DNA of 64,000 nt from an uncultured Gemmatimonadales bacterium (GTDB taxonomy: Bacteria > Gemmatimonadota > Gemmatimonadetes > Palauibacterales > Palauibacteraceae). The stretch lies in NCBI GenBank assembly GCA_947259585.1, contig CAMYMV010000018.1:15415-79414 (forward strand), read 5' to 3'. Of this stretch, positions 25,458-39,419 are shown in pieces. Position numbers and translations under genes: made by a program. The stretch's first letter is position 1; each line of letters opens with the position of its first letter. Under the pieces are notes generated by a model. The model was not told where the DNA came from and did not search any database. It saw nothing but the letters and a program-made list of their open reading frames with translations.

Positions 25458-25550
25458 GGCGCCACATTAGGCAGCTTGCCGAGAGTGGGCAAGCGGCGGA
25501 TAGGCCCGTCATACGGGCTGATCCGGGGTGTCCGGTTCAGTCGCGCAGGC

Positions 25551-25579
25551 TTGACTATCGTGAGTGCCGCGTTTACGAT
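25551..25579 (+). promoter_or_regulatory. Sigma70 promoter of the tRNA cluster
   Basis: TTGACT-17 bp-TACGAT followed by a GC-rich discriminator. Confidence 0.7.
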
Positions 25580-25590
25580 GGGCGGATCGC

Positions 25591-25664
<74 letters not shown>

Positions 25665-25669
25665 TCATA

Positions 25670-25706
25670 GGCCCTGCCGCGCGTCGCGCCTGGCGGGGCG
25701 TTTTTT
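25670..25706 (+). terminator. Intrinsic terminator-like hairpin after tRNA-fMet
   Basis: GCCCTGCC...GGCGGGGC followed by T6. Confidence 0.55.
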
Positions 25707-25763
25707 ACGTGTCGGGCGATCTCGTTCGCGGCAGAGCCGCTGACGGGAGGGGCGCTTCGACAT

Positions 25764-25836
25764 TCCGGGGTAGCTCAGTGGCCAGAGCGGGTGGCTGTTA
25801 ACCACTAGGTCGTGGGTTCGAATCCCACCCCCGGAG
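25764..25836 (+). tRNA. tRNA-Asn (GTT)
   Basis: Cloverleaf, GTT anticodon. Confidence 0.95.
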
Positions 25837-25874
25837 CTGAGGCTGTCGATGCGATCGGCGGTATCGACGATGTC

Positions 25875-25947
25875 GGCTGGGTAGCTCAGTCGGTAGAGCA
25901 CCGCGCTGAAAACGCGGGTGTCGGCGGTTCGATTCCGCCCCCAGCCA
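25875..25947 (+). tRNA. tRNA-Phe (GAA)
   Basis: Cloverleaf, GAA anticodon. Confidence 0.95.
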
Positions 25948-25952
25948 TACGA

Positions 25953-26026
25953 AGGGGCGTAGCTCAACTTGGCAGAGCACCGGTCTCCAAAACCGGCGGT
26001 TGGGGGTTCGAGTCCCTCCGCCCCTG
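25953..26026 (+). tRNA. tRNA-Trp (CCA)
   Basis: Cloverleaf, CCA anticodon. Confidence 0.95.
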
Positions 26027-26046
26027 CTGCCTTCGTCGCGGAAGGT

Positions 26047-26118
<72 letters not shown>

Positions 26119-26138
26119 CTCTGCTTTCGGGCGGAGAC

Positions 26139-26212
26139 GCGCCCGTAGCTCAGGTGGATAGAGCATCGGCCTTCTAAGCCGAGGGTCGCAGGTTCGAGTC
26201 CTGCCGGGCGCA
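26139..26212 (+). tRNA. tRNA-Arg (TCT)
   Basis: Cloverleaf, TCT anticodon. Confidence 0.95.
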
Positions 26213-26245
26213 TGCGGGCCGGATCGAGCGGTCATGACACCGAAG

Positions 26246-26317
26246 GCCCCCATCGTCTAACGGCCAGGACACCACTCTTTCAAGGTGGAGATAGGGGTTC
26301 GATTCCCCTTGGGGGCG
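26246..26317 (+). tRNA. tRNA-Glu (TTC)
   Basis: Cloverleaf, TTC anticodon. Confidence 0.93.
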
Positions 26318-26339
26318 TCAAGGAGGAGATCCGCAGCAC

Positions 26340-26412
26340 GGGGCCGTAGCTCAGCTGGGAGAGCGCTGCAATGGCATTGCAGAGGTCGCGGGTTCGAGCC
26401 CCGCCGGCTCCA
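26340..26412 (+). tRNA. tRNA-Ala (GGC)
   Basis: G3:U70 pair, GGC anticodon. Confidence 0.95.
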
Positions 26413-26459
26413 CTGTTGACACCGCTGTAGCACGAGTTTGGAACCAGACAGCACCACGA

Positions 26460-26532
26460 GCGCCGCTAGCTCAATTGGCAGAGCAACGGACTCTTAATCC
26501 GTAGGTTCGGGGTTCGATTCCCTGGCGGCGCA
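26460..26532 (+). tRNA. tRNA-Lys (CTT), integration target
   Basis: Cloverleaf, CTT anticodon; 3' part duplicated at 36985. Confidence 0.95.
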
Positions 26533-26537
26533 TTTTT
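26490..26537 (+). repeat. att site copy 1 (within tRNA-Lys)
   Basis: ACTCTTAATCCGTAGGTTCGGGGTTCGATTCCCTGGCGGCGCATTTTT. Confidence 0.92.
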
Positions 26538-26579
26538 GTAACTAGTTATCCCGCCCCACACTCCAGCGTTGTTGTCGCC

Positions 26580-26592
26580 TTCCATTATGGAA
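26580..26592. promoter_or_regulatory. Palindrome TTCCAT-T-ATGGAA, copy 1
   Basis: Identical 13-mer at 28037-28049. Confidence 0.6.
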
Positions 26593-26634
26593 CAATCGTT
26601 CGGATGTACCGCGAACTGTACCACGTTCTCGGGC

Positions 26635-27792
26635 CTAGCGGACGGCACGGAGCCCGACCTTCTGCCCCTCTAGAAGCACCCGCTCCATCGCGTCCAGGTC
26701 GGCTTGTTGGTAAAGCTCCTGGAGTACCTGGGTGCCCTTCCAGCCACCGAGCGCCGCCACATCCTGCACGCTCAACTGCTTTCGCTTCGTCGCGAACGCA
26801 CGGCGCAGTGAGTGCCAGCCGAAGCCTCGGACGTGCGGGATCTTCGCGGCCCTCTCGACCTTTCGGAACCAGTGAGAGGCGAGGGATACGGTGACGTGAC
26901 CCTCACCGCCGGGCGCTGGGAAGATCCATCCCGTAGCGCCCCCGGTCTCGTGCCGGTGCGCTTCGAGCGCGTCCCGTACGGAAGGTGTGACGGGCGTCGC
27001 GGAAGTGCGGCCGAGCTTATCGAAGTCGGCGTGCCAGACCAGCGTTCCGAACTTCCCGGCCTCAGGGTTCCAGTCCTCCCACCGGAGCGAGACGATGGCG
27101 CCAATCCTACGGCCCGTCTCGGCGGCCTCCATGAGTTTCGCCAGCATGGCATCGCCGCAGACAGGCCGTGCGGGATCCTTCGTCGTTGGCAGGTCGAGGC
27201 CCGTGGTCGGATCAAACGGCACGAGCGGGCGGCCGTCGCGACGCACGCTGAGTGCGTGACGGCAGACGTGCCGGAGGGTCTTTAAGACCTTCGCGGCCGA
27301 GCGCGGGCCTACCTTCCTGCGCTTGCCTTCGGCAACCGTCCGCCCGTGCGCGTCAATCTCACCCGACATGATCGACCGCTGGAGCCAGGTCCAATCAGGG
27401 GAGCCGATGTCGGTGGCCTTCCTCGGCCCGAGCGTTCGGCGGAGTAGCTCGACGTGACGCTTGGTCTCGACCTCATGCTTCCCGGTCATGTCGGGTAACA
27501 CGTCCCGCTCGAATCGGGTAATCAGGTCGCGGAGCGTCGGCTCGCGTGCTGGCATCCCGTGGCCTTGGATGAGTCGGTTCGAGAGCTTCGCCGCCTCCGC
27601 CTTCGCCCGCTCCACGTGCTCAGGGATTAAGTTTCCGTCCGCGTCCCGTACACGGAAGCTGAGCGAGCGCCAGCACGTGCCCCTGATCTTCGGGTCACGG
27701 GCGCCGATGCGGACGTTGCCGCCCCGCGTCCGTTCCGCGACCATGACGGTCGCGCCCCTGGGGCCGATGCTGTGCTTCCATTTCTTGGGCAT
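26635..27792 (-). CDS. Tyrosine recombinase/integrase
   Basis: TGRR (R), DK (K), HSLRR (HxxR), GGW, LY (Tyr); start ATG 27792. Confidence 0.9.
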   Translation of the reverse strand: MPKKWKHSIGPRGATVMVAERTRGGNVRIGARDPKIRGTCWRSLSFRVRDADGNLIPEHVERAKAEAAKLSNRLIQGHGMPAREPTLRDLITRFERDVLPDMTGKHEVETKRHVELLRRTLGPRKATDIGSPDWTWLQRSIMSGEIDAHGRTVAEGKRRKVGPRSAAKVLKTLRHVCRHALSVRRDGRPLVPFDPTTGLDLPTTKDPARPVCGDAMLAKLMEAAETGRRIGAIVSLRWEDWNPEAGKFGTLVWHADFDKLGRTSATPVTPSVRDALEAHRHETGGATGWIFPAPGGEGHVTVSLASHWFRKVERAAKIPHVRGFGWHSLRRAFATKRKQLSVQDVAALGGWKGTQVLQELYQQADLDAMERVLLEGQKVGLRAVR

Positions 27793-28034
27793 CACTCCTC
27801 CTCGCTCAGCGTGACGAGTGCACGACGAATGCGATCGGCCGCCTCGGAGAGCAGGCCAGCCCGGTCCTCGAACGCGACGAGGATCAGCTTCGCCGTCTGC
27901 GGCGTCGCGCGGATTCTGCCGGCCGTGATGTCGTTGAGCAGCGCGTGCGAAAGATCGAGATCGCGCGCGAGCGAGCGCCGGCTTCCGGGCCACCTCCGCA
28001 TCGCGTTGAGTACCGCTCCCGTCAACTCATCCAC
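27792..28034 (-). CDS. Small helix-turn-helix protein (repressor/excisionase-like)
   Basis: SRRSLARDLDLSHALLNDITAGR HTH; stop overlaps the integrase start. Confidence 0.7.
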   Translation of the reverse strand: MDELTGAVLNAMRRWPGSRRSLARDLDLSHALLNDITAGRIRATPQTAKLILVAFEDRAGLLSEAADRIRRALVTLSEEE

Positions 28035-28036
28035 CT

Positions 28037-28069
28037 TTCCATTATGGAAGACGCCCAGCGCACAGTCAA
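28037..28069 (-). promoter_or_regulatory. Promoter of the HTH-integrase operon overlapped by palindrome copy 2
   Basis: TTGACT (28069-28064)-17 bp-CATAAT (28046-28041); TTCCATTATGGAA at 28037-28049. Confidence 0.65.
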
Positions 28070-28109
28070 CCGCTGAGTATGCGCTCAGCTAGATCGTCCA
28101 CCGCGCTCA

Positions 28110-28835
28110 GTGCCGGTGCGCCGGGCCGGCGCGGCAAGTCGGAGCGATCTCCGGGTGGTCGTTTCGACTGAGGGTGGTGGCGTTGATCCAGACGGATACG
28201 TAGTGGCTCTGGATTCTCTCCGCCAAGCGGGGGGTGTGGACGGGTCCGTGGTTTTCATTAAGGTCACTCCCGGCAGCCACGCGGCGATGTTGCTGGACTT
28301 GGCCGACGGTTGCGAGGTCCGTGGGGGCAATCTAAAGACCGTCGCGATAGCGGAAGGTAGCACCGCAGAAACACGATTCGATGTCGTTTGTGACCAGGAG
28401 CCTATCCTTCCACCAGTTCGACGCGAACCGCCACCGGCTGCAAGGGCGGAGCTTCCGACAACCGCAGATCCGGTCCCACCAAGCGTCATTCCGATAGGCT
28501 ACTTCGCTGCTGGCTACTGGATAGGCACACTTGAGCCGCCGGGTTTCGCCTCCTATCCGGTCCACTGGACGTTCTTTTCCAAACAGGAGCTAGGCGAAGT
28601 GGTTGGCGAAGCCACGTATGAATCCCCGTCGCCCTGCTCCTACGACCTGATTCTCGAGTTCGTCGGAGACGCGGAGTTGGTTGTCGCGCAACAACTGGTG
28701 ACCGGCGGCTGCGCCAACGGCACGCGAGTCATTTTGCGCCGCGACGAGGAGAAACTCTGGGCCTACTGGTTGAAGCCGGACGAGACCCCCTGGTTTGAGG
28801 CCGAACTTTCGCGAGTCTCGCCAAACAGACCTTGA
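28110..28835 (+). CDS. Hypothetical two-domain protein, probably N-terminally truncated
   Basis: T.G..DPDGY.V...C...T.F.V.C beta-domain, Pro linker, second Cys-containing domain; no signal peptide seen. Confidence 0.6.
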   Translation: MPVRRAGAASRSDLRVVVSTEGGGVDPDGYVVALDSLRQAGGVDGSVVFIKVTPGSHAAMLLDLADGCEVRGGNLKTVAIAEGSTAETRFDVVCDQEPILPPVRREPPPAARAELPTTADPVPPSVIPIGYFAAGYWIGTLEPPGFASYPVHWTFFSKQELGEVVGEATYESPSPCSYDLILEFVGDAELVVAQQLVTGGCANGTRVILRRDEEKLWAYWLKPDETPWFEAELSRVSPNRP

Positions 28836-28853
28836 GGTATCGCCCCCCTGACC

Positions 28854-28938
28854 TGTTACTCCAGTAACATCTCGGCCCCGCCACGCTCCTGATCATCCTC
28901 CGACCATACGCCACCGAATAAAGGTTCTCCTGACTTGC
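28854..28938 (+). repeat. Inter-cassette element R1
   Basis: TGTTAC-N4-GTAACA...CCACGCTCCTGATC...CTCCGACCATACGCC...GAATAAAGGTTCTCCTGACTTGC. Confidence 0.85.
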
Positions 28939-29230
28939 ATGGCGGCTGATGCCGGGTTGATCGTGGACGGATCAAGATTGAAAGCGGGCGCTCGCCTGCT
29001 CTCTGAGGTGGTGCGATGCTATCGGCGTTGGGCAAACGCCTGGACACCTCGACTGGCCGGACACTTCGACCAGCCCTCCTCATAGCTCATCCCCGATCCA
29101 CCACTGAGACCAAGAATCCATATCGACGGCCAGGCTCCCCTGCGAGCCGCCCTGTCGTAGCTATAGATCCTCAGCGGTAAACCAAGAGATCGGAGCGTCG
29201 GGTCCGATGGACGCTCCGCAGACGAAATAA

Positions 29231-29312
29231 GCTGCCAGCCAGCGGCTCTTTACGGGAGAACACCGGCTGACAGCTACCGACACACGAAACCCGCGAGGGG
29301 TCGCGTGCTTGG
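29231..29312 (+). ncRNA. Candidate structured leader, copy 1
   Basis: Two hairpins; homologous to 30925-31004. Confidence 0.4.
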
Positions 29313-29466
29313 CCGCATAACGTAGCTACCCTAAGTGCCGCGTCAACACGTCTTCCCTTTCGAGTCACGACGTGCGAGCCGATCGGTCGTCGCGACTCTG
29401 CGCCTGCTCCGTACCCGTTACCGAGGGCGGACGCATGGCAGCCTTGATCGGTGGGAGGTTCATTCG

Positions 29467-30504
29467 ATGACACGCCATATCATTCCTTGGCTGGTCGGGC
29501 CGTTGATCGTCTTTCTTTCCGCCTGCGAGCAGACAACAGCGCTCGAGGAGGTCGTGGCTTCGCCAGCGGTGGCCGCGGCCGACGCGACCAAAAGCTACGT
29601 GCCGGTGGACCTGGGCACCTTGGGTGGCAACCGCAGCTATGCCTGGGGCATCAACGATCGAGAGCAGGTTGTCGGGTTCAGTTACACCGCGGACTGGAGG
29701 GACCACGCCTTCCTGTGGGAGGACGGGGTGATGGAAGACCTGGGGGACCTGGGTGGCGACTGGAGCAGGGCCTACGGGATCAACAACCGCGGGCAGGTGT
29801 TCGGCTACGGCTACACCGCCGATGGGAAGACCCACGCCTTCCTGTGGGAGGACGGCGTGATGGAGGATCTGGGCACCCTGGGTGGCAGCCACAGCTATGC
29901 CACGGGGATCAACGACCCGGGGCAGGTCGTTGGGAGTAGCTACAACGCCGATGGGGAGTACCATGCGTTTCTTTGGGACAGCGGGGTGATGGAGGACCTG
30001 GGCGATCTGGGTAGCGGCTGGAGCGAGGCCAGAGCGATCAACAACCTCGGGCAGGTGGTCGGCTACAGCTACGCCGCCGATGGGGAGCTCCGGGCCTTCC
30101 TGTGGCAGGACGGGGTGATGGAGGACCTAGGGGACCTGGGTGGCGACTGGAGCAGGGCCTACGGGATCAACGAACGAGGGCAGGTGGTTGGGTACGGTGA
30201 CACCGCGGACGGAAAAACCCACGCCTTCCTGTGGCAGGACGGGGTGATGGAAGACCTGGGCACCCTGGGTGGCGACCACATCCGTATCGAAGCCTACGGG
30301 ATCAACGAACGGGGGCAGGTCGTCGGCCACAGCGGCACCGCCGGGGGAGGACTCCACGCCTTCCTGTGGGAGGACGGCGTGATGGAGGATCTGGGCACCC
30401 TGGAAGGTCACATAACCTTCGCCCTGGGCATCAACCATCGGGGACAGGTGGTCGGGGGAGCTGGCACTAAAGTCACGTGGCACGCAACCCTCTGGACGCG
30501 GTGA
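29467..30504 (+). CDS. HAF-repeat extracellular lipoprotein
   Basis: LSAC lipobox; seven repeats of DLGTLGG..S.AYGIN..GQVVG...HAFLW. Confidence 0.9.
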   Translation: MTRHIIPWLVGPLIVFLSACEQTTALEEVVASPAVAAADATKSYVPVDLGTLGGNRSYAWGINDREQVVGFSYTADWRDHAFLWEDGVMEDLGDLGGDWSRAYGINNRGQVFGYGYTADGKTHAFLWEDGVMEDLGTLGGSHSYATGINDPGQVVGSSYNADGEYHAFLWDSGVMEDLGDLGSGWSEARAINNLGQVVGYSYAADGELRAFLWQDGVMEDLGDLGGDWSRAYGINERGQVVGYGDTADGKTHAFLWQDGVMEDLGTLGGDHIRIEAYGINERGQVVGHSGTAGGGLHAFLWEDGVMEDLGTLEGHITFALGINHRGQVVGGAGTKVTWHATLWTR

Positions 30505-30516
30505 CCCGGCAGATAC

Positions 30517-30648
30517 AAAGGGGCGGTTCCTTCGGGGCCGCCTCTGCCTACATCTGCGACCTTTCACGCGGTCCATCGCGGCCCTTCCAGGCTCCTGACC
30601 AGAGTCTCCGACCATACGCCGCAGAATAGAGGTTCTCCTGACTTGCGG
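30517..30648 (+). repeat. Inter-cassette element R2 with terminator-like hairpin
   Basis: GGGGCGGTTCCTTCGGGGCCGCC hairpin, then CGCGGCCCTTCCAGGCTCCTGACCAGAGTCTCCGACCATACGCCGCAGAATAGAGGTTCTCCTGACTTGCGG. Confidence 0.88.
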
Positions 30649-30924
30649 TCGGCAATGATAGGGGTCATGGTCAGCAAATAACGAAAGTGGGCCTCTTTCC
30701 GCGCCCGCTTCTGAGGTACAAAAAGATGTTCCCGGCAACGGCAGCAGTTCGACCTGCCCCGGACCCCGCCGGACTCCCGGCGCAGCCCTGCGCCATGATG
30801 CACTCCTCTGCCACTCTCGCGAACCGTAATCACTACTGTCTCACGCCCCAAGCGGAACCGTCGTAGGCAAGCGTCCGAGCGTCCGTGGGGGCGCTTTGCC
30901 GTCATAAATCAAAAAAGAAAAAGG

Positions 30925-31004
30925 GCTGCCGGCCAGCGACTCGTCGCGGAGAACACCGGCTGACAGCCCAGATACACGGAACCTGCAAGGGGCTCCGTGC
31001 TTGG
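30925..31004 (+). ncRNA. Candidate structured leader, copy 2
   Basis: Homologous to 29231-29312 with pairing-preserving changes. Confidence 0.4.
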
Positions 31005-31146
31005 TCCGGGTGGCGGGGCTGCTTTTCGCTGGTAGGCCTGCGTTAGAGCCACGACGTGTTGTGCCGGTGGCACGCCACGACTCTCCGTCTGCCACGCACT
31101 TGCGACGCGCATGCGTCAATCATCGACAGAAAGGCGAGTTGTAAGC

Positions 31147-32583
31147 ATGAGGCGTTTTGTTCTATTCGCACTGCTGTGCTGCGTGGCCGAAGGCGCCATG
31201 CTCGTGGGCTGTGGCGACGACTCCACCGGGCCCGAGCCCGAGCCCGAGCCCCAGCCCCAAATGCTCTCCTTCGCCGCGATAGCGGGCGAGTGGACGGGTA
31301 CCGTCACGCAACCGAGTCCCCCAATGGCCTATGTCACGGTGCTCACGCTGGAGACGGAGGCCCAGTTCGACTCGCCGGTGGGAACGATCGAGTACACCGA
31401 GCTGTGCGGTGGGCGCCTGTATGCCCAGCAGGCCAGTGAGCCCAACTACAGGGTCTCGGAACACCTTACGTACGGGATCGAGCGGTGCATCAATGGGGGT
31501 AAGATCACTCTGACTCACGACCCGGTGGCCGGCACGCTCAGTTATCAGTGGCGCCTGGGCGGCATCGGATCCTCGGGGGTTCTGACTCGGCCGCGAGCCC
31601 CGCTCCCGGGTGGGACTGTCGCTTACACGGCTACCGACCTCGGCACCTTGAACGGCAGCGATGGCTGGAGCGCTGCGACGGACATAAGTGACCTGACCGG
31701 AGGGACGCTGCGGATCGCCGGCACGAGCGCCGTGGGCGCAAACGTCGAGACGGTTGCCGTGCGCTGGGAGGTGAATGAGAGCGGGGATGTGGACGGGCCG
31801 CTCCTTCTACCGCTGAGCGACGGTTTCTCTGCTGCGGACGCTCGAGGCATCAGTGATGACGGTCTCATCATCGTGGGCCATGCCGAGAACCTGCCCGTCC
31901 GGTGGGATCGTGAGGCGAGCTGGGCCATGACAGAGCTCGTACCGTATGACGGTTACGAGTACGGTGGCGTGTTCGACGTCAACAACGACGGGGCAGGGGT
32001 CGGCTGGAGCACGAGCGGGTCCCAGACTCCGGTCCGCGTGGCGACTCGTTGGGACGGGCTCGAATCGCCAATCAGGCTTCCCAATCCAATCCACCCTAAC
32101 GGGGTCAGCAGGGCCCGCGGCATAAACAACAGCGGCATCGTGGCGGGTGAAGTCTGGGATGCGAACAACGTCTCGGCGCAGGCCATCCTCTGGTTGCCTG
32201 ACGACACTTGGTGCACGCTCGGTCCCGGTATTGCCCACGACCTGACCGATACGAGCGATGGAACGATTCTCGTCGCCGTTTCGGTGGACGCCACCATGGC
32301 CAAGGTCTGGAAAGTCACCGTGAGCTCGTGCGACGTCACCGAGTGGGAGCTGGGCTCCTCCCAGGTTGCCTTTGATGTCAGGGCCACGGAGGGGGGCTGG
32401 GAGGCCGTCGGGATGAAGGCCGATGCACCCATGGTGTGGGCCTACGACGGCACTGAACTTACCGCGACGCAGCTCGCGGACGACCTCAAGGCCCGTGGCA
32501 TCAACCAAGCTGGCGAGATCGTCGGGCGGTCCATGGTGAACGGAGCTTGGCACGGCATCCTGTGGACGCCGACCCAACCCTGA
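31147..32583 (+). CDS. Lipoprotein with N-terminal beta-domain and degenerate HAF-like propeller
   Basis: LVGC lipobox, PEPEP linker, DLGTLNG, ARGINNSGIVAG, WHGILWT. Confidence 0.8.
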   Translation: MRRFVLFALLCCVAEGAMLVGCGDDSTGPEPEPEPQPQMLSFAAIAGEWTGTVTQPSPPMAYVTVLTLETEAQFDSPVGTIEYTELCGGRLYAQQASEPNYRVSEHLTYGIERCINGGKITLTHDPVAGTLSYQWRLGGIGSSGVLTRPRAPLPGGTVAYTATDLGTLNGSDGWSAATDISDLTGGTLRIAGTSAVGANVETVAVRWEVNESGDVDGPLLLPLSDGFSAADARGISDDGLIIVGHAENLPVRWDREASWAMTELVPYDGYEYGGVFDVNNDGAGVGWSTSGSQTPVRVATRWDGLESPIRLPNPIHPNGVSRARGINNSGIVAGEVWDANNVSAQAILWLPDDTWCTLGPGIAHDLTDTSDGTILVAVSVDATMAKVWKVTVSSCDVTEWELGSSQVAFDVRATEGGWEAVGMKADAPMVWAYDGTELTATQLADDLKARGINQAGEIVGRSMVNGAWHGILWTPTQP

Positions 32584-32602
32584 GGTCGCCGATCCGTACA
32601 GC

Positions 32603-32734
32603 AAGGGGCGGTTCCTTCGGGGCCGCCCCCGCCCGCATCTAGGGACCTGGTTACGCGCGTAACAACGCGGCCCCTCCAGGCTCCTGACCAGAGTCTCCGA
32701 CCATACGCCGCAGAATAGAGGTTCTCCCGACTTG
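32603..32734 (+). repeat. Inter-cassette element R3 (most complete copy)
   Basis: Hairpin + GTTACGCGCGTAAC + core near-identical to R2. Confidence 0.88.
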
Positions 32735-32866
32735 GGGGGGCTCATCCTTGCGCCAGGCTTGTGACTGAGCAAACAGGCTCCGTGGAAGTCAGACCCACGT
32801 CCTCGATCACGTTTCTCAACAGCGACGGAAACGTAGTGTGGAAGGCACCGTAGCTGAGGTTTCGGC

Positions 32867-32980
32867 GTGAAGGTCTCACGCGAGACGGACCGAACCGTTC
32901 GCTGGCTGATCGTTGGGCTGCTTGCTCTCCAACTGGTCGGCGTCCTACTGTTTCTTATCTGGGTGTTCTTCTTCCAGTAG
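32867..32980 (+). CDS. 37-aa single-pass membrane microprotein
   Basis: GAGGT RBS, GTG start, MKVSRETDRTVRWLIVGLLALQLVGVLLFLIWVFFFQ. Confidence 0.5.
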   Translation: MKVSRETDRTVRWLIVGLLALQLVGVLLFLIWVFFFQ

Positions 32981-33007
32981 GTTCCAGCCGTCGAGTCCCG
33001 TCGCGCG

Positions 33008-33087
33008 CTCCACGCCCCTGATCTCGTCCTCCGACCATACGCAAGCGCATAGATACGCCGAAGAATAGAGGTTCTCCCGACTTGCGG
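33008..33087 (+). repeat. Inter-cassette element R4
   Basis: CTCCACGCCCCTGATCTCGTCCTCCGACCATACGC-[16-bp insertion ending in duplicated ATACGC]-CGAAGAATAGAGGTTCTCCCGACTTGCGG. Confidence 0.85.
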
Positions 33088-33243
33088 CGGCCCATCCGCA
33101 GTAGAAGTGTAAACAGCACGAGGGCTTACGCCCTCCAAGCTGCTCGGTGGTCGCTGACTGCGCCGAGCAGACGCCCCAGCAGGACGCCTGCCCGACCGCA
33201 CCTCCCCGAACTGCGACATACCCTGCACCTGCGGGAGGTCACG

Positions 33244-33789
33244 ATGACTATTCGGAGAAGTGCCCCTTTCGCGATAGCCCTCCTTCTGACCTTTGCCTCT
33301 GCGCTCCAAGCCTCTGACACGACGTTCGTTAGCCAGGGCGCTCGGGTAAAGCTGTTTCCCGCCCAGCCCAGCGCAAAGACGATCACCGGCAACGTCACCG
33401 ACCTCGCGTCTGACACCCTCGTTATCGTGCCAGAAGGTGGTGGGGAGGCCCTCACGTTTGATCGCCGTGACCTGCGCAAGATAGAAGTCTCGCAGGGAAG
33501 CAAGGGAAATGCGCTCCTTGGCCTTGGTGTCGGTGCCGGTGTGGGTATTGGACTCGCTCTCGCCGTGTGCTCGGCAGACGATTGGACCTATTGCGCCTAT
33601 GACGACTCCGATGGCACGGGCGCTTTTGCAGCCATCGGAGCGGCTCTGTTCGGCGCGATTGGAGCCGGTGCAGGAGCCCTGATCAAGACGGAGCGGTGGA
33701 ATGAGGCGGAGTTTCCTGCGTCACCGTCTGTAGCCCTCAACGTCGGTAAGGACGGCTCGGTCCGGCTGGCCTTCTCGCTACAACTCTGA
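33244..33789 (+). CDS. Secreted hypothetical protein with glycine-zipper hairpin
   Basis: GGAGG RBS, signal peptide, GLGVGAGVGIG and GAALFGAIGAGAGALI. Confidence 0.75.
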   Translation: MTIRRSAPFAIALLLTFASALQASDTTFVSQGARVKLFPAQPSAKTITGNVTDLASDTLVIVPEGGGEALTFDRRDLRKIEVSQGSKGNALLGLGVGAGVGIGLALAVCSADDWTYCAYDDSDGTGAFAAIGAALFGAIGAGAGALIKTERWNEAEFPASPSVALNVGKDGSVRLAFSLQL

Positions 33790-33803
33790 CTTGGGAGGTC
33801 ATC

Positions 33804-34523
33804 ATGTTCCGCATTCATCGAACGACGCCTAGCCGTAGGAAGGCAAAGCCTGTCTTGCTGATTTCTCTAATAGCGCTGATCGCCGTCTGGGCATATGCCT
33901 GTGACGGAACAGCGCCCACGGAATCCGCGGTCGTGGCTGCAGATGCAACCTTCAAGTCTCAGGGCAAGCGACCAAGGCTGAGCAGCACGTTCGACAAGGG
34001 GGCTGACGGGTGGACGATCGCCGGGGACGGCGATGACGCCATGACAGGCTGGTGGCCGTTGTCGCTTCAGCCCAGCTACGATCCGGCGGGAGGCAATCCG
34101 GGCGGTGCCGTCTACGCGGTTGATCGTGGGCGAGGTGGGGCTTGGTTCTGGCACGCGCCGCCCAAGTTCCTGGGGAATCGTCGTGGTGCCCACCGCGGAA
34201 CCCTAGAGTTCGACATCAGGATAGAGCCGGCCGGCCCGACCAACAATTACGCAGACGTTGTCCTGGCCGGCGCTGGGCTGACCCTTATGGTCGATGCCGG
34301 ACCCGAGCCTACTACGACTCAATGGACCCACTACAGTGTCCGCCTAGACGCTGGAGCCGGTTGGCGTCACAGAGACCTTTGGGGCCCGCGCGCTACTGAG
34401 GAGGAGATCCGAGCCGTCCTCAAAGATCTGACGGTCCTTCTCATCCGAGGAGAGTTCATCACTGGCGATGATACGGGATATCTGGACAACGTCAGGATCC
34501 TCCCACCGGGTAAGGGCACCTGA
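33804..34523 (+). CDS. Laminin B (domain IV)-like lipoprotein
   Basis: AYAC lipobox; WFWHAPPKFLGN...GTLEF, VL.DLT.LLIRGEF, LDNV. Confidence 0.75.
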   Translation: MFRIHRTTPSRRKAKPVLLISLIALIAVWAYACDGTAPTESAVVAADATFKSQGKRPRLSSTFDKGADGWTIAGDGDDAMTGWWPLSLQPSYDPAGGNPGGAVYAVDRGRGGAWFWHAPPKFLGNRRGAHRGTLEFDIRIEPAGPTNNYADVVLAGAGLTLMVDAGPEPTTTQWTHYSVRLDAGAGWRHRDLWGPRATEEEIRAVLKDLTVLLIRGEFITGDDTGYLDNVRILPPGKGT

Positions 34524-34540
34524 AAGAGCTATTGGGCAGC

Positions 34541-34627
34541 GGGGGCGGTTCCTTCGGGGCCGCCCCTGGCCGCATATACGAACCTACACGCGCGTAACAG
34601 CCCCTCCACGCTCCTGATCTCGTCCTC
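34541..34627 (+). repeat. Inter-cassette element R5
   Basis: Hairpin + ACGCGCGTAACA + GCCCCTCCACGCTCCTGATCTCGTCCTC. Confidence 0.85.
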
Positions 34628-34724
34628 GCTGCCTTGCAACTGGGGGTTCGGTCCACCACCCTGATCCGCAGCAGAATCGCGTGTCCGTTAGGCAGAAACA
34701 CCTCAGATAAGCAGAGCACATCCG

Positions 34725-35306
34725 ATGTGGACCGTATGGCTTATACTCGGGTTCGCCCTAGCGATCTTCGCCGCCACGATCGTGCTCCTTTGGCCTGACC
34801 TGCGCGCTGCCCCCCGTGGCTGGCAACTGCTCGCTGCATCTGGCCTCCCCCTGGCCCTCGGTGGTCTCGGATTCGCTATCCGGTTCTGGGACCCGACGCC
34901 AGGCCCGTACCTAGCTAACGAACTCTACCCGTTCGGCACCCTGCTGAATGCCTGGGCGGTGTCCTTCGGCTTTATGTGGCTCGCGTTCGGTCTGGCTCTC
35001 TTCGCCTTCGCCGTTCGAGACCGACACTCTGGCCGCACCTGGCTCGCGCTCCTGGTAGCGTGGGCGCTCGCTTGGTTGCCGCATGGGGTAATCGGTATCG
35101 CCTTTGCGGTGGCCGGCTCCAACCAACCCAGCATTGACCTGTACCGCGGGTGGGGCTCCGAGTGGGGTGGTTTCCTCACCCTCGTCGGCGGCAGTGTCGT
35201 CCTCCTGGCCCACTTCGTCATGAGCGTGCTCGGTTTTGCCCTGAGCGGCCTTGATCTGCGGCGTCCCGGCACAGGCGTCTCCGAGAAGCCGGAGGTTTCT
35301 GCCTAG
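34725..35306 (+). CDS. Hypothetical multi-pass membrane protein
   Basis: About five hydrophobic segments. Confidence 0.7.
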   Translation: MWTVWLILGFALAIFAATIVLLWPDLRAAPRGWQLLAASGLPLALGGLGFAIRFWDPTPGPYLANELYPFGTLLNAWAVSFGFMWLAFGLALFAFAVRDRHSGRTWLALLVAWALAWLPHGVIGIAFAVAGSNQPSIDLYRGWGSEWGGFLTLVGGSVVLLAHFVMSVLGFALSGLDLRRPGTGVSEKPEVSA

Positions 35307-35379
35307 GGGCCGCCCCATCCACAGCCACGAACCTGTTACGCGCGCAACAACGCGGCCCCTCCACGCTCCTGATCTCGTC
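35306..35379 (+). repeat. Inter-cassette element R6
   Basis: Right arm of the hairpin (GGGGCCGCCCC) + TGTTACGCGCGCAACAACGCGGCCCCTCCACGCTCCTGATCTCGT. Confidence 0.85.
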
Positions 35380-35517
35380 TCCTTGTGCCAACTCAACAGA
35401 AGGTTCCGCCCAGGTTGCTTATTGGCAGGGCCGACGAACGGACTCTTGACGCTCCTCCATGGCCAGAGGAGCTTCAGTCTGCCAATTACGATGAGCTTTT
35501 CATCAAGGGAGGTATCT

Positions 35518-35717
35518 ATGCGTCGCTCCACGCCCTTCATCTACTCGTCTTTGCTGCTCTAATTGCAGCGCCCGCAGCCGCCCAAACGAATCAGGAAGTG
35601 GCTGATCAAGTGATCGCGCTTGCCAAAGCCCAATGGGCCGCCGAGATGGCCAATGCTTCTGCCGCCGAAATACTCAAAGACATGGCCGCCGCCGAGAGCT
35701 TTCGCGGAGACGGTTGA
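35518..35717 (+). pseudogene. Frameshifted, truncated secreted-protein remnant
   Basis: Strong RBS + ATG 35518; signal peptide continues in another frame (LIAAPAAAQTNQEVADQVIALAKAQWAAEM) then breaks off. Confidence 0.55.
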
Positions 35718-35818
35718 GCAGGTTCGTCGCGGTCACGACAACAGGCCGTGCTTGAAATGGGAGCATCGGGCGCGTCGTTGAGCGTGGGGCGAGCGCGATT
35801 GGCGACCGGGAACGCGCC

Positions 35819-36895
35819 ATGACTACGTCCTCCCTTGAAGCTTTCATTCGAACCGCAAGGAGCATCGTTGGCCGGGATGCGTGTAATCCACTCTCTCTTG
35901 AAGATATTTACTCCCTCGCCTACCAACTTGGATTGAGTGGTGTGCTGTTTCTTGAGAAGTTGGAGGACAGCCGACATGTGACCGTCCTGTTGGGTCTGGA
36001 TGAGAGCAGCGTGGTACTCTATGATCCGCTGTCCGGGGTTAGAGTCAAAGCCTGCAACGAGACGCAGTTAGGAATGTACTCCAAGCCGGTAGGATCGCTT
36101 CGGGACGAGTTCCGGGAATATGAGCAGCAATTCGCGCCAGAAGAATGCTCGGATGTCTGGGCACAGCATAGGCACACGGGGAAGCTGCTATCGAGCTTCC
36201 TCGGGCAACATAGTGAGTTCAGGCTCGCCTGTTCCGCAGGCGCGTCAACCGTTGCCAGTCCTGTTGATCTTCCGGCTCTTCAAGACGAATCACGGCGTTC
36301 AGACTGTGCACCGATTTGTCTATTCGTCATGTCTCTTATGCACCCCACCACAGGAGACGCAGCGAAGGAATCCGCTATGGCTATCCAGATACTTGTCACC
36401 GGAGGAACATTCGACAAGGAGTATGACGAGTTGGGAGGAAGGCTTGTCTTCAGGGAGACGCATGTACAGGAGATGCTCAAGCTGGGTCGATGCAAACAGA
36501 AGGTAGACATTCGTACGTTGATGATGGTTGACAGTCTCCAAATGACCAGTGCCGAGCGAGAAGTGCTCGCGGAGAGTTGCCGGGAGTGCAAAGGGGAGCG
36601 GATCGTCATCACCCACGGCACAGATTCCATGGAGGTGACAGCCAGCGTTCTGGGGCGAGCCATCAAGAACAAGACAATCGTTCTCACCGGGGCGATGGTG
36701 CCCTACAAGTTTGGGAGTTCCGACGGCCTCTTCAATCTGGGTAGTGCGCTGGCATTCGCGCAGAGTCTACCGGCGGGCGTGTATATCGCGATGAACGGTA
36801 GGTGTCTCGCATGGAACAAGGTCCGGAAGAACAAGGAAACCGGCGAGTTTGAAGAGATCACATCGACTATCCGCCGATCACAGGCGGGAACGTGA
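35819..36895 (+). CDS. Putative cysteine-protease-like domain fused to an asparaginase N-terminal domain
   Basis: From 36377: TGGTFDK, HGTDSM, LTGAM, SSDGLFN asparaginase motifs; N part has H...D...Q...DC motif order. Confidence 0.75.
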   Translation: MTTSSLEAFIRTARSIVGRDACNPLSLEDIYSLAYQLGLSGVLFLEKLEDSRHVTVLLGLDESSVVLYDPLSGVRVKACNETQLGMYSKPVGSLRDEFREYEQQFAPEECSDVWAQHRHTGKLLSSFLGQHSEFRLACSAGASTVASPVDLPALQDESRRSDCAPICLFVMSLMHPTTGDAAKESAMAIQILVTGGTFDKEYDELGGRLVFRETHVQEMLKLGRCKQKVDIRTLMMVDSLQMTSAEREVLAESCRECKGERIVITHGTDSMEVTASVLGRAIKNKTIVLTGAMVPYKFGSSDGLFNLGSALAFAQSLPAGVYIAMNGRCLAWNKVRKNKETGEFEEITSTIRRSQAGT

Positions 36896-36984
36896 CCTAT
36901 AAGCGGGCACCAAGCACGCATAAGCGGCGTACAAGTTGTCCCGTGTTTGCTGGGTATGAACGAGGTGTGCCAAGCCCGGAACGA

Positions 36985-37032
36985 ACTCTTAATCCGTAGG
37001 TTCGGGGTTCGATTCCCTGGCGGCGCATTTTT
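36985..37032 (+). repeat. att site copy 2 (duplicated tRNA-Lys 3' end)
   Basis: Identical to 26490-26537. Confidence 0.92.
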
Positions 37033-37221
37033 CCCTCCAGCGGCTTACCGCGTTTCCCACATCGCTTCTCAACTGGTCGCCGACTTAGCCGTCGGGCTCA
37101 AGCGGGCCGACGCTCTTAACACTCGCGGCAGGTGAAAACTCTGCCGGTCTTCGCAAGTAATGGTGAACTGCACCTCAACTCCCAAGCCTGCAAGTGAGCA
37201 TTCGCGCCCAAGTTCGGTAAC

Positions 37222-37237
37222 TGGCACACCTCTGGCT
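37222..37237 (+). promoter_or_regulatory. Possible sigma54 promoter
   Basis: TGGCAC-ACCTC-TGGCT, GG-N10-GC spacing. Confidence 0.4.
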
Positions 37238-37295
37238 CAGTCTTAGGAGTAGGGCCGCCGAGATCGGCAGCCGGACCGAGAAGCCAGGGGGATCG

Positions 37296-37715
37296 ATGCG
37301 ACCGAGAACCGTGATGTTAATGGCCGCCCTAACGGCAGCCACCGCGTGTTCGAGTAGCTCCAGCAACAGTCCTCCAGAGCCAAAGCCGTCAGCCCGCAGC
37401 GCGCCTGTCTCATCGGGCACCGTGCGGACTTCGACCTCTACAGCGGCCACGCTCGGCATTCCACCGGGTCATCTCCCTCCGCCTGGAGAGTGTCGTATTT
37501 GGGTGCCCGGAACACCACCGGGGCACCAGCGAGACGCTGGAGCCTGCTCGACTCTTGAACGGCAGGTACCGCAGGGCGCATGGTTGATTCACCGACCCTC
37601 CAAGGACAAGAAAGTGGTGAATGTGTGGGTCTACGACTCCCAGGGTTCGCTGCCCACGGTGATGCGCATCTTCGATGTGGTGACCGGAGCGTTGATTGGC
37701 GAGGAGCTACTCTAG
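37296..37715 (+). CDS. Hypothetical lipoprotein
   Basis: ATAC lipobox; GIPPGHLPPPGECRIW.PG.PPGHQ motif. Confidence 0.75.
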   Translation: MRPRTVMLMAALTAATACSSSSSNSPPEPKPSARSAPVSSGTVRTSTSTAATLGIPPGHLPPPGECRIWVPGTPPGHQRDAGACSTLERQVPQGAWLIHRPSKDKKVVNVWVYDSQGSLPTVMRIFDVVTGALIGEELL

Positions 37716-37957
37716 CTGGGAGGAGTGCGAAATGGATTGAGACTCCCCGGTAAGTCCACGGACGGGAATGATCATAAAGGTGGGGCTGGCGTATGTGCTC
37801 TGGATCTGGCTCTTCGCCCTCGTCAAGCTGACTTTGATCGTCTTCTAAGAAGTGCCCTAGATTGTGGCGGTCACGGTGTGCCCCGACGCCGAACGCCACT
37901 CCCGCAGCGCCTCCAGCTTCCCGCGCTCGATATGCAGACCGATCCTTGCCGACGGCG

Positions 37958-37978
37958 ACGCTCCTGATCTCGTCCTCG
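37958..37978 (+). repeat. Partial element copy R7 outside the att repeat
   Basis: ACGCTCCTGATCTCGTCCTCG, identical to the R5 core. Confidence 0.7.
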
Positions 37979-38221
37979 TAGAGCGGCCTTCTGGTCTCGT
38001 TTCGCCTGCAATCCTCCGTTCGCAGCCTCCCAATCTGCTATCCGTACTCTCCGGCAGTCCCTCCCAAGCGGTGAGGAATTCGCGTGAACGCCCGGAATCC
38101 TCTCAAAATGCCGATCTACGCCTGTGGCGCTCGAGCCACTTGCCTTCGCCATCCCTCCATTGAGTGGCCATAAACGACTATGGTGTATGGCGTTACTGTT
38201 CTTCTCAGCAAATCGTGAGCA

Positions 38222-38237
38222 TGGCGCCGACTTTGCT
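38222..38237 (+). promoter_or_regulatory. Sigma54 promoter of pilin operon 1
   Basis: TGGCGC-CGACT-TTGCT. Confidence 0.7.
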
Positions 38238-38310
38238 CCTTCCCGAGGCGTTCGAACCGGCCCAACCGATGGGGGATTGCGTGAGTGAAGAGCACCTTCG
38301 CGGGTCGCCG

Positions 38311-38976
38311 ATGACCCGAACGCAGAAGCGATGCACGACGGACGCCCGTCGAAAGACCAACCCGCGCTGGTGCCGGCAGACGGGCGGCTTCACGCTGGTC
38401 GAGGTGCTTATCGTCATCCTCATGATAGGCGTGCTGAGTGCCCTCGTCGCTCCGACCCTGGCTCGTGTGACGCCGGCGGAGCTCGCCAGCGAAGGAGCCG
38501 AGGACCTCGCCCAGGCGATGCGTCTCGCCCGTTATAGGGCGGTCGCGATGAATCGGCGGGTCTACTTCGACTTTCAGCCCTCCGGGACGCCGAACTTCTA
38601 CACGGCCTACGTCAACCTGGGCGACCCAGCCGACGTGCCGACCGGCACGCCGGCGGAGATCACCGCGGCGAACATCCCGGTGCTCAACGACACGCAGGGT
38701 TCCATGCGCGGCGCCGACCTTCCGGAAGCGATCGTGTTCGCGACCGGCCACGCGGCTTCCGGCCCGGGCGGAGCGCCGGCGACGAGTGCGCTCGTCCTGC
38801 CATCGAACCCGCTGATCTTCGGGCCTCGCGGCACCGTGGAGTGGCCGGACGGCAGTCTGGCTACCGGGGTAGTCTACGTGAGCCACGCCGATCACCCCTC
38901 CCGCGTCCGGGCCATAACCGTCGCACGCAGCGGGATGATCAAGGTCTGGTACCTCAACGCCGGTAGCTGGGAATGA
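38311..38976 (+). CDS. FimT/GspH-like prepilin
   Basis: GFTLVEVLIV cleavage motif; AR.RAV; F.PRG. Confidence 0.85.
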   Translation: MTRTQKRCTTDARRKTNPRWCRQTGGFTLVEVLIVILMIGVLSALVAPTLARVTPAELASEGAEDLAQAMRLARYRAVAMNRRVYFDFQPSGTPNFYTAYVNLGDPADVPTGTPAEITAANIPVLNDTQGSMRGADLPEAIVFATGHAASGPGGAPATSALVLPSNPLIFGPRGTVEWPDGSLATGVVYVSHADHPSRVRAITVARSGMIKVWYLNAGSWE

Positions 38977-39419
38977 GTCCGACCGAGATAACGCGCAGCG
39001 GGATTCCGCATGATCGCCGCTCGAGAAGCGGAGGGCTGTCACCCAACGGTTTCACGACGATCGAGTCGATGATCGCGCTCCTCCTGCTGACGATCGTCGG
39101 CCTGGGGATCATGTCGGAAATCGTCGTGGTGCGGTCGGCCGACAAGTTCGCCGGGGAGCAAACCCGAGGGGTCGCGCTAGCGGTTCGGAAGCTCGAGGAG
39201 CTGAAGGCGCTGCCCGCGGCGAGCGTGGTCGCCGAGGCCGTGACGGCCGTGGATGTCAATGGCAACGAAGGGTCGGGTCCCTACCGCCGCCGAGTGGACG
39301 TGGCCGAGGGCGTGGACGGCAAGGACACGAAGACCATCACGGTGGTCGTCGAATACCCGACCGGAAAGATGGGCCGCCATTCCGTCCAGCTCACCACCAT
39401 CATCTACTCGGGCAACTGA
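38973..39419 (+). CDS. PilV-like prepilin
   Basis: GFTTIESMIAL; LA..KLEELK. Confidence 0.82.
   Translation: MSPTEITRSGIPHDRRSRSGGLSPNGFTTIESMIALLLLTIVGLGIMSEIVVVRSADKFAGEQTRGVALAVRKLEELKALPAASVVAEAVTAVDVNGNEGSGPYRRRVDVAEGVDGKDTKTITVVVEYPTGKMGRHSVQLTTIIYSGN

Follow-up and report, generated by a model that had tools for sequence, protein, structure and literature searches.

A modular repeat at the junctions of co-oriented gene units in a Gemmatimonadota tRNA-Lys island and elsewhere in its genus

What is the composite repeat that stands between the genes of a tRNA-linked island in an uncultured Gemmatimonadales bacterium, and does it have anything to do with how those genes came together? The question arises from a 64,000-nt stretch of DNA, here called the window (contig C18, positions 15415-79414, a window coordinate being the C18 coordinate minus 15414), in which an island at a tRNA-Lys gene carries six copies, R1 to R6, of what we term the junction element. 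The source assembly amounts to 3.48 Mb in 134 contigs, with 66% GC, and is 90% complete. A reading made from the letters of this DNA alone (the sequence-only reading) had proposed an integron-like cassette array in which the repeat is worked by the adjacent integrase. We favour, with a probability of about 0.55, another account: that this is a modular Gemmatimonadota element lying between self-contained units of ~1 kb, which are exchanged by recombination at the element.

The six copies, placed by nhmmer profile search and also read directly in the sequence, lie on the + strand where the sequence-only reading had put them (Table 1). When the core, the D tail and the hairpin were sought in the window at no more than 3 mismatches, the matches numbered 4, 4 and 3, compared with 0 in 100 shuffles, and all of them are confined to 28916-37977. 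Module A is a GC hairpin of 25 nt, GGGGCGGTTCCTTCGGGGCCGCCCC, which folds with 11-12 pairs and starts 15-21 nt past the stop codons at 30504, 32583 and 34523. It is followed by module B, a variable spacer frequently containing GTTAC-N4-GTAAC, and by module C, centred on a pyrimidine-rich, almost invariant core of 20 nt, ACGCTCCTGATCTCGTCCTC. Module D, CGACCATACGCC...GAATAGAGGTTCTCCCGACTTGCGG, comprises ~37 nt up to TTGCnn, then N16, then TAGnnT, while module E is a conserved leader found behind many D copies, containing a hairpin of 8 bp and the word GACGCC twice. Across 147 distinct copies, the mean frequency of the commonest base is 0.97 in A, 0.66 in B, 0.90 in C and 0.91 in D, and C has the highest occupancy. 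The fullest form described by the sequence-only reading is true of R3; each of the other copies has some module missing or degenerate, the tail GAATAGAGG, for example, being absent from R5 and R6. In R2 and R3 the variable segment of 7 nt reads CCAGAGT, and in R4-R6 it reads TCTCGTC. The core region (28876-28910 and generally) can be read as a 7-nt periodic series, CTCCACG, CTCCTGA, TCTCGTC, CTCCGAC, of which the variable segment is the third unit; the core is C-rich and G-poor on the gene strand.

The element is specific to a Gemmatimonadota lineage and is not private to the tRNA-Lys island. By profile this genome holds 19 copies, 6 in the island and 13 on 10 other contigs; counted singly, there are 15 of module A, 16 of C (a few of them doubtful) and 11 of D. 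Our genus set consists of this genome and 11 others, all 11 of which have matches, with up to 23 per genome among the matches listed. A match was found in 17 of the 41 relatives searched, and in 5 of the 29 that lie outside the genus. The exact 21-nt core, sought in a 185,579-species collection and in IMG/VR, occurs in 74 stretches of the former, 67 of them with titles beginning Gemmatimonad, and in one IMG/VR contig. That contig (L159), which is called viral, carries the core twice (258-277 and 11825-11844), a tRNA-Leu gene with an adjoining integrase-like open reading frame (ORF), and a further ORF that resembles a prohead protease, as judged from its N-terminal sequence alone.

The DNA between successive copies has the regularity of a cassette array. 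Among 154 core hits (this genome plus 74 loci), neighbouring cores less than 8 kb apart are on the same strand in 70 cases and on opposite strands in 1, counts that overlapping loci inflate somewhat; for most pairs the spacing runs from 358 to ~3000 nt, with a median of 974 nt. The genes that the repeats separate are unrelated to one another, and most of their products are exported or membrane proteins; one of them, for an M28 peptidase, was found in only 2 of the 12 genus genomes. When 374 ORFs from 75 core loci and the window were clustered, the largest cluster proved to be a family of exported PD40/'DPDGY' proteins.

The order and content of the units differ among relatives. Window segment 33008-34624, which contains the R4 core, two genes and the R5 core, recurs with 78% identity in G010:C35, from another genome, where 35306-35686 (R6 and the 300 nt behind it) also recurs, with 91% identity. 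The order of these two segments is reversed in G010:C35, as in a circular permutation. A third segment, 34600-35277 (R5 core, leader and membrane-protein gene), has a 95% copy beside a tRNA-Leu gene in G002:C55, among different neighbours, and this alignment turns identical exactly at the first bases of C. Gene order is thus permuted, and cassettes relocated, where a fixed order would have spoken against any shuffling, and a profile search of relatives, as the sequence-only reading had suggested, recovered arrays of variable cassette content and order.

A wider comparison places the limits of shared sequence close to the core. In an all-against-all BLAST comparison of 164 sequences (1.04 Mb), with blocks of at least 300 nt and less than 98% identity, 8.1% of block end points fall no more than 10 nt from a core, compared with 1.4% of random points. 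Near the core, 45 of 116 block starts lie within -20 to +19, with a peak at -9 to 0, and of 46 block ends, 44 lie no further than +19. These positions imply that the core is the last piece of upstream-linked homology and the first piece of downstream-linked homology. BLAST is blind to crossovers inside identical sequence, and the figures therefore mark where common modules stop, not strand exchange. Comparison of the loci shows exchange of units at the junction, and the cassette-array behaviour expected by the sequence-only reading (co-orientation, ~1-kb units, differing order and content, breaks at the core) is borne out. A scan for filled and empty sites over all locus pairs found insertion of the whole island only, and no clean case of a single cassette. 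Among public reads, no run contained more than 0.15 of the sampled words; contigs of four runs over 26400-38200 pile up on the repeat modules, and their joints, short-sided (20-45 nt) and like other copies of the element, bear neither for nor against excision.

The account that we prefer would run as follows. Each unit would bring its own promoter-like module D, one or two accessory genes and its own hairpin A, such that A would terminate the upstream unit and D would initiate the downstream one. The units form strictly co-oriented arrays, which are found at numerous places in each genome of the genus and are enriched in, but not limited to, tRNA-linked integrase islands. The core is the one piece that the 3' flank of a unit has in common with the 5' flank of its successor; it would mark the joining point, and units would swap between arrays and between genomes by recombination there.

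Could the element equally be a set of expression signals and nothing more? On a consensus reading, module D would be a promoter with a conserved upstream part, and hairpin A looks terminator-like. A TAnnnT box lies 15-16 nt past TTGCnn in 26 of 75 distinct D copies, mostly as TAGGCT, compared with 0.8% of random positions; the first two positions of the box are T in 45 and A in 44 of the 75, and the spacer between the boxes is variable. Leader E, present at window 33140-33200 and at 14 loci, consists of a hairpin, CTGCTCGG...CCGAGCAG, followed by GACGCCC-N6-GGACGCCTGCCTGACCGCAC. Its sequence is invariant, with 0 compensatory pairs in 15 aligned copies and no Rfam match, and it could be an operator or a 5'-untranslated element. 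A purely regulatory explanation would make A a terminator and C-D-E the promoter and operator of an envelope or exported-protein regulon, with the arrays produced by tandem duplication and selection and with no part played by recombination. It would account for a promoter-like D before unrelated, mostly envelope genes, also as single copies, and for modules conserved in sequence without covariation, as protein-binding sites are; R2, R3 and the upstream leaders, which go with two paralogous HAF-repeat genes, fit tandem duplication. It leaves unexplained, however, why one and the same core closes the 3' flank of one gene (A-B-C, no promoter following) and opens the 5' flank of another, why co-orientation reaches 70:1, why near-identical non-coding DNA lies between unrelated genes of different species, and why core-bounded cassettes are found relocated. 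We regard this explanation as quite improbable.

The element was also compared with several familiar kinds of sequence. Structural folding of five copies (R3 on both strands) gave only hairpin A, with unpaired ends and z-scores of -0.76 to +1.32. An attC site was rejected on the lack of R''/R' or L''/L' end pairing, in a structural check that is not the standard attC-model test, and CALIN, clusters of two or more attC sites with no intI near them, were rejected in turn, the repeats not being attC-like. As for the enzyme, the IntI model TIGR02249 scores above its cut-off in 0 of the 12 genus genomes; its sub-threshold matches are Xer-like and cover model positions 11-181 and 245-302 only, and the island integrase has no NCBIfam match at E<=0.01. 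The sequence-only reading was right, then, that neither attC nor IntI is involved. A structured RNA was rejected, as the whole element folds no better than shuffled sequence and hairpin A alone is stable, and an Rfam scan of window 25000-39000 at E<=1 returned only tRNAs and chance hits. Nor is the repeat a fragment of a duplicated coding gene, a possibility that the sequence-only reading had itself raised: three-frame translation of the minus strand of R1-R6 gives no common open frame with a start, there are frame-shifting indels, and the 7-nt variant is unlike codons. An origin in tRNA was rejected for want of likeness to the 51 tRNA genes of the genome, with which only chance words of 8-9 nt are shared.

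A selfish origin was also considered. The element might be non-autonomous, of the type of miniature inverted-repeat transposable elements (MITE), repetitive extragenic palindromic sequences (REP) or bacterial interspersed mosaic elements (BIME), inserting behind genes by means of a transposase encoded elsewhere. The copies are short and dispersed, lie between genes, have a modular build and are lineage-specific; contigs frequently end within one; R6 replaces the last 10 codons of the membrane-protein gene relative to the 95% identical copy; and the genome has one HUH (Y1)-like gene. This gene, a 312-amino-acid (aa) ORF at 1399-2337 on the + strand of G000:C51 (locus L074), gives a weak match to PF01797 (22.4 bits, the cut-off being 23). 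A 50-nt direct repeat and stretches of tandemly repeated 22-nt units enclose it, and these flanking repeats are its own, unrelated to the junction element. Moreover, there are only ~11-16 copies per module per genome, the ends of the element do not pair and so provide no terminal inverted repeats, which together with target-site duplications characterise a MITE, the modules are always collinear, and forms without one end are common. Searches for other recombinases in the 90% complete assembly gave 0 matches each for resolvase, IS110 and rve. REP or BIME sequences mobilised with a REP-associated tyrosine transposase (RAYT) were rejected on the copy number and on the unrelated flanks of the HUH-like gene; GTAGAGC does occur 3' of the core in many copies, yet away from any hairpin foot. 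Insertion as a selfish element seems to us highly improbable.

The integrase next to the array is one candidate for an enzyme. On the explanation closest to the sequence-only reading, the adjacent tyrosine integrase, or its family acting in trans, would capture, excise and shuffle cassettes at the repeat, making the system analogous to an integron but with its own site and recombinase, both of them new; A-B-C-D would then be an attP-type junction, and C-D and A-B-C the ends of arrays. The genome encodes four tyrosine recombinases, two of them Xer-like and two of them island integrases (at tRNA-Lys and tRNA-Ile), and both island integrases are accompanied by arrays. The second island (L082, G000:C9, 97.5-107.4 kb), beside tRNA-Ile, has a 32% identical integrase and, at its far end, 3-4 junction elements on the minus strand. 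Homologues of the integrase, with 31-53% identity, are found in 6 of the 12 genus genomes, always adjoining a tRNA gene. Of 13 integrase loci that were mapped, 7 have repeats on the 5' side of the integrase, all pointing away from it, and 4 of the 6 loci without repeats have less than 1.3 kb on the relevant side. In G010:C4 the full layout is repeated, with tRNA-Arg, integrase and divergent array. Integrase homologues occur in 4 of the 75 core loci, which together make up 394 kb, and this is more than expected from about two per 3.5-Mb genome. The alternative left and right arms of the core, which occur in all combinations, and the circularly permuted cassette order between two genomes would also suit a site-specific enzyme of this kind.

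The wider distribution of the element argues in the other direction. The remaining 71 of the 75 core loci have no integrase homologue within the ~8 kb examined per locus, and the same is true of 20 array loci of relatives; the expected association of arrays with homologous integrases thus stands for 7 of the 13 integrase loci, in divergent orientation, but not for most core loci. Genome G003, which is 88% complete and has 23 matches, lacks any integrase homologue at E<=1e-10, while G009, a closed genome with 10 matches, has only a 206-aa fragment of one, ~88 kb from the nearest copy among the matches listed. The core is constant although the island integrases and their tRNA targets differ; it is asymmetric, with no inverted binding sites and no attC-like fold; and the island has a tRNA-derived att repeat of its own. 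Clustering of the ORFs, in a search for a recombinase family that recurs beside the arrays, gave only an integrase cluster with 4 members. With copies of the repeat spread through genome and genus, largely as the sequence-only reading had said they would be were the idea wrong, a site private to the integrase is not supported, and nor is the proposed tie to the adjacent enzyme: 13 of the 19 copies lie outside the island. We consider control by this integrase family unlikely.

Exchange at the junction element remains our preferred account, and the points that weigh against it are best taken together. Four cassette boundaries are well resolved, and one of them is off the core: on the right of the membrane-gene cassette, homology with G002:C55 stops within the last ten codons of the gene. 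To some extent the boundary statistics depend on which modules a given pair of loci has in common, and the loci were incompletely de-duplicated by genome, pairs at or above 98% identity having been dropped from the block statistics and none from the co-orientation count. If only the 9 integrase loci with 3 kb or more on the relevant side are counted, 7 have repeats, all divergent; with such enrichment an integrase may matter after all. The promoter role of D and the terminator role of A are consensus readings only; a strict TAnnnT is present in only 35% of D copies, and no T-run follows hairpin A. There are, in addition, hairpin-only and D-only singletons outside arrays.

The flanks of the core can be read in two ways. 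To its left stand three forms (A with the palindrome spacer, A with a spacer ending in a GCCGAG...CTCGGC hairpin, or unique sequence) and to its right three more (module D, GTAGAGCnG and then unique sequence, or unique sequence directly), and every combination is seen. By analogy, such alternative flanks resemble the attP/attB/attL/attR logic of site-specific recombination. The likeness is weakened by a longer form, core-GTAGAGCCGCATC-D, by the same hairpin opening both left forms, and by the hairpin-only and D-only singletons. With these copies, the longer form and the common left hairpin in view, decay could give part of the flank pattern, and the partial forms could derive by decay from a single ancestral intergenic stretch of ~330 nt. 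The core itself, as read from its sequence, has no dyad symmetry and is strand-asymmetric, lacking the inverted binding sites usual for tyrosine recombinases.

By what route would units be exchanged? We give about even odds to each of two possibilities. A core-directed site-specific reaction, whose recombinase need not be adjacent, would suffice. Alternatively, exchange may be driven by homology, through the 100-300 nt of near-identical junction sequence, in the way proposed for the arrays of neisserial intergenic mosaic elements (NIME). A stronger form of the first possibility, which we put forward tentatively, is that the asymmetric 20-nt core may be the crossover site of an undescribed cassette system, in which promoter-bearing units would be excised and re-inserted by a recombinase other than IntI. 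Possible candidates for that enzyme, named with the same reserve, would be the integrases of the tRNA islands, working both in cis and in trans, or else some enzyme still to be recognised. If true, this would constitute a second independent invention of the integron principle, one that would supply exported and surface proteins.

The island in which the element first came to notice is itself of a well-known kind. A 53-nt direct repeat derived from the tRNA-Lys gene bounds it, with one mismatch between the copies at 26485-26537 and 36980-37032 (98%), and the GC content falls over the island from ~0.70 to 0.55-0.65. In the closest relative that has the flank (G002:C34) the site is empty: tRNA-Lys is followed by ~35 nt, after which the flank resumes at window 38041. 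From the direct repeat, the integrase at tRNA-Lys, the fall in GC and the empty site it follows that the region is a classical tRNA-linked genomic island, with every feature by which such islands are recognised. Its cargo ORFs all lie on the + strand, divergent from the helix-turn-helix (HTH) and integrase pair, as the sequence-only reading had said. Two of the cargo genes are HAF-repeat paralogues; the others, for the Laminin_B, membrane and asparaginase-N proteins, are mutually unrelated.

Table 1. Features of the tRNA-Lys island and copies of the junction element, in window coordinates
Feature	Position	Strand	Basis or remarks
tRNA-Lys(CTT), last of nine clustered tRNA genes	26460-26532	+	ARAGORN, Rfam tRNA
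Left copy of island direct repeat (tRNA-Lys 3' part)	26485-26537	+	Repeat family D5
Tyrosine integrase, 385 aa, not IntI	26635-27792	-	PF00589, 30.8 bits; no NCBIfam family, including TIGR02249
Small HTH ORF, 80 aa, its stop overlapping the integrase start	27792-28034	-	HTH_3, weak, 16.3 bits, below cut-off
Cargo ORF 1, with 'DPDGY' domain common to many lipoproteins at other repeat loci	28110-28835	+	Codon score, clustering; no Pfam family
R1	28854-28938	+	Modules B-C-D, no hairpin
HAF-repeat lipoprotein, 129-nt tandem repeats	29467-30504	+	TIGR02913, 338.9 bits; repeat families D1-D3
R2	30520-30648	+	A, degenerate B, C (CCAGAGT variant), D; no GTTAC-N4-GTAAC palindrome
Second protein with C-terminal HAF repeat	31111-32583	+	TIGR02913, 31 bits
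R3	32605-32736	+	A-B-C-D, sole full copy
Predicted hydrophobic ORF, 37 aa, mini-cassette between R3 and R4, with Shine-Dalgarno-like sequence	32867-32980 (C18 48281-48394)	+	Sequence
R4	32978-33087	+	C-D (core and tail), core 33012-33031; then leader E, ~33140-33200
Exported protein, 181 aa, in one unit with the gene after it	33244-33789	+	Both co-inherited in G010:C35
Lipoprotein with Laminin_B domain	33804-34523	+	PF00052, 73.4 bits
R5	34542-34627	+	A-B-C, no D; core 34608-34627
Membrane protein	34725-35306	+	Cassette 95% identical to one beside tRNA-Leu, G002:C55
R6	35291-35406	+	Degenerate A overlapping stop codon, B, C (core 35363-35382); no D
Asparaginase N-terminal domain protein, in low-GC stretch (55%)	35819-36895	+	PF00710, 99.3 bits; GC profile
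Right copy of island direct repeat (tRNA-Lys 3' end, attR-like)	36980-37032	+	Family D5, 98%
Lone exact core, seventh copy, outside the island	37958-37977	+	Exact core match, in 1-kb stretch absent from G002:C34

Some further features of the island are recorded here in their own right. A second conserved leader of ~85 nt lies 5' of both HAF-repeat genes, at 29226-29310 and 30912-31002, and is found twice in G010:C35. The asparaginase N-terminal domain of the protein encoded at 35819-36895 is preceded by an unmatched N-terminal part of 180 residues; over this gene, contigs from 3 of the 4 metagenome runs, which come from different studies, differ by 4-7 letters each, and the flanks differ in one run. 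Behind the right repeat, 37033-38040 is a further ~1 kb of variable DNA, likewise absent from G002:C34, which contains the lone core and is 86% identical to DNA adjoining another array in G002:C55. The tRNA-Lys site may therefore have been occupied more than once.

How does the junction element compare with known systems? Among systems that are well understood, only integrons, to our knowledge, stack and shuffle single-gene cassettes. Their defining components are IntI, a tyrosine recombinase with an extra domain of its own, and attC sites, imperfect inverted repeats with ends that pair within a single strand, and in the Vibrio cholerae repeats (VCRs) the element sequence is homogeneous within a lineage, as it is in the junction element. 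Further likenesses to integrons and CALIN, as these are treated in the parts of Cury et al. 2016 (PMC4889954) drawn on here, are the co-oriented units of ~1 kb, the unrelated accessory genes with one conserved element per unit, the divergence of the array from any tyrosine recombinase that lies beside it, and the arrays without a recombinase, as in CALIN. Set against the same parts of that source (PMC4889954), the present system differs in having no IntI in 12 of 12 genomes, no R''/R' pairing and an asymmetric core of 20 nt; and whereas integron cassettes are mostly promoterless, most units here have a promoter-like module to themselves, D being present at 4 of the 6 junctions in the window (R1-R4). 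A co-oriented cassette array divergent from an integrase gene, as expected of an integron, is found here, but the neighbouring integrases are ordinary tRNA-site integrases, and of the attI site and common Pc promoter that integrons have beside intI, no attI can be defined.

REP, BIME and hairpin-forming REP doublets (REPIN), with their RAYT, are hairpin-containing intergenic repeats, short, modular and lineage-specific, which are situated behind genes and number hundreds per genome. They are recognised by a palindromic unit with a conserved GTAG and by a RAYT gene flanked by the same repeats. The junction element, in contrast, has tens of copies per genome, its hairpin is one module among several, and the flanks of the HUH-like gene are unrelated to it. 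The neisserial NIME arrays of dRS3 and RS provide another parallel, for the sections of Bentley et al. 2007 (PMC1797815) used here describe intergenic repeats of mosaic make-up that are genus-specific, a short invariant unit standing between segments that vary, clustering by variable surface-protein genes, and recombination end points in or near the arrays. Two mechanisms are proposed in those sections, a substrate for homologous recombination or a target for a specific recombinase, and dRS3 is also a phage integration site (PMC1797815). Two differences emerge from the same sections (PMC1797815): dRS3 is a 20-bp inverted repeat, whereas the core is without dyad symmetry, and NIME form pure repeat arrays between genes, in contrast with one composite element per unit, including terminator-like and promoter-like modules, in the system described here.

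Mobile promoters, in the portion of PMC3575422 consulted, and promoter-bearing Correia elements, in that of PMC1797815, likewise place the same promoter region before unrelated genes. Unlike these, the promoter-like region here is joined to the core and to a terminator-like module, marks unit boundaries in ordered arrays and is not bounded by inverted repeats. Where integrative elements accrete in tandem at tRNA genes, the picture is similar in that small units are stacked behind a tRNA gene, with the same bounding repeat and mostly without an integrase of their own; here, however, one tRNA-derived att pair bounds the whole island, and arrays are also found far from tRNA genes. A narrow literature search on integron-like cassettes in Gemmatimonadetes returned no related description, and we make no claim that the element is unpublished.

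Whichever route proves correct, a poorly studied phylum reaches an integron-like genomic outcome without IntI or attC, by way of a junction that would also supply expression signals to each unit. If the core is a recombination site, it would represent a new cassette platform with a simple, directly testable site of 20 nt; if exchange is instead driven by homology, these arrays would show clearly, outside the neisseriae, how repeats can guide the turnover of surface-protein genes. In both cases the element is a practical marker for the flexible gene pool of the genus in metagenomes.

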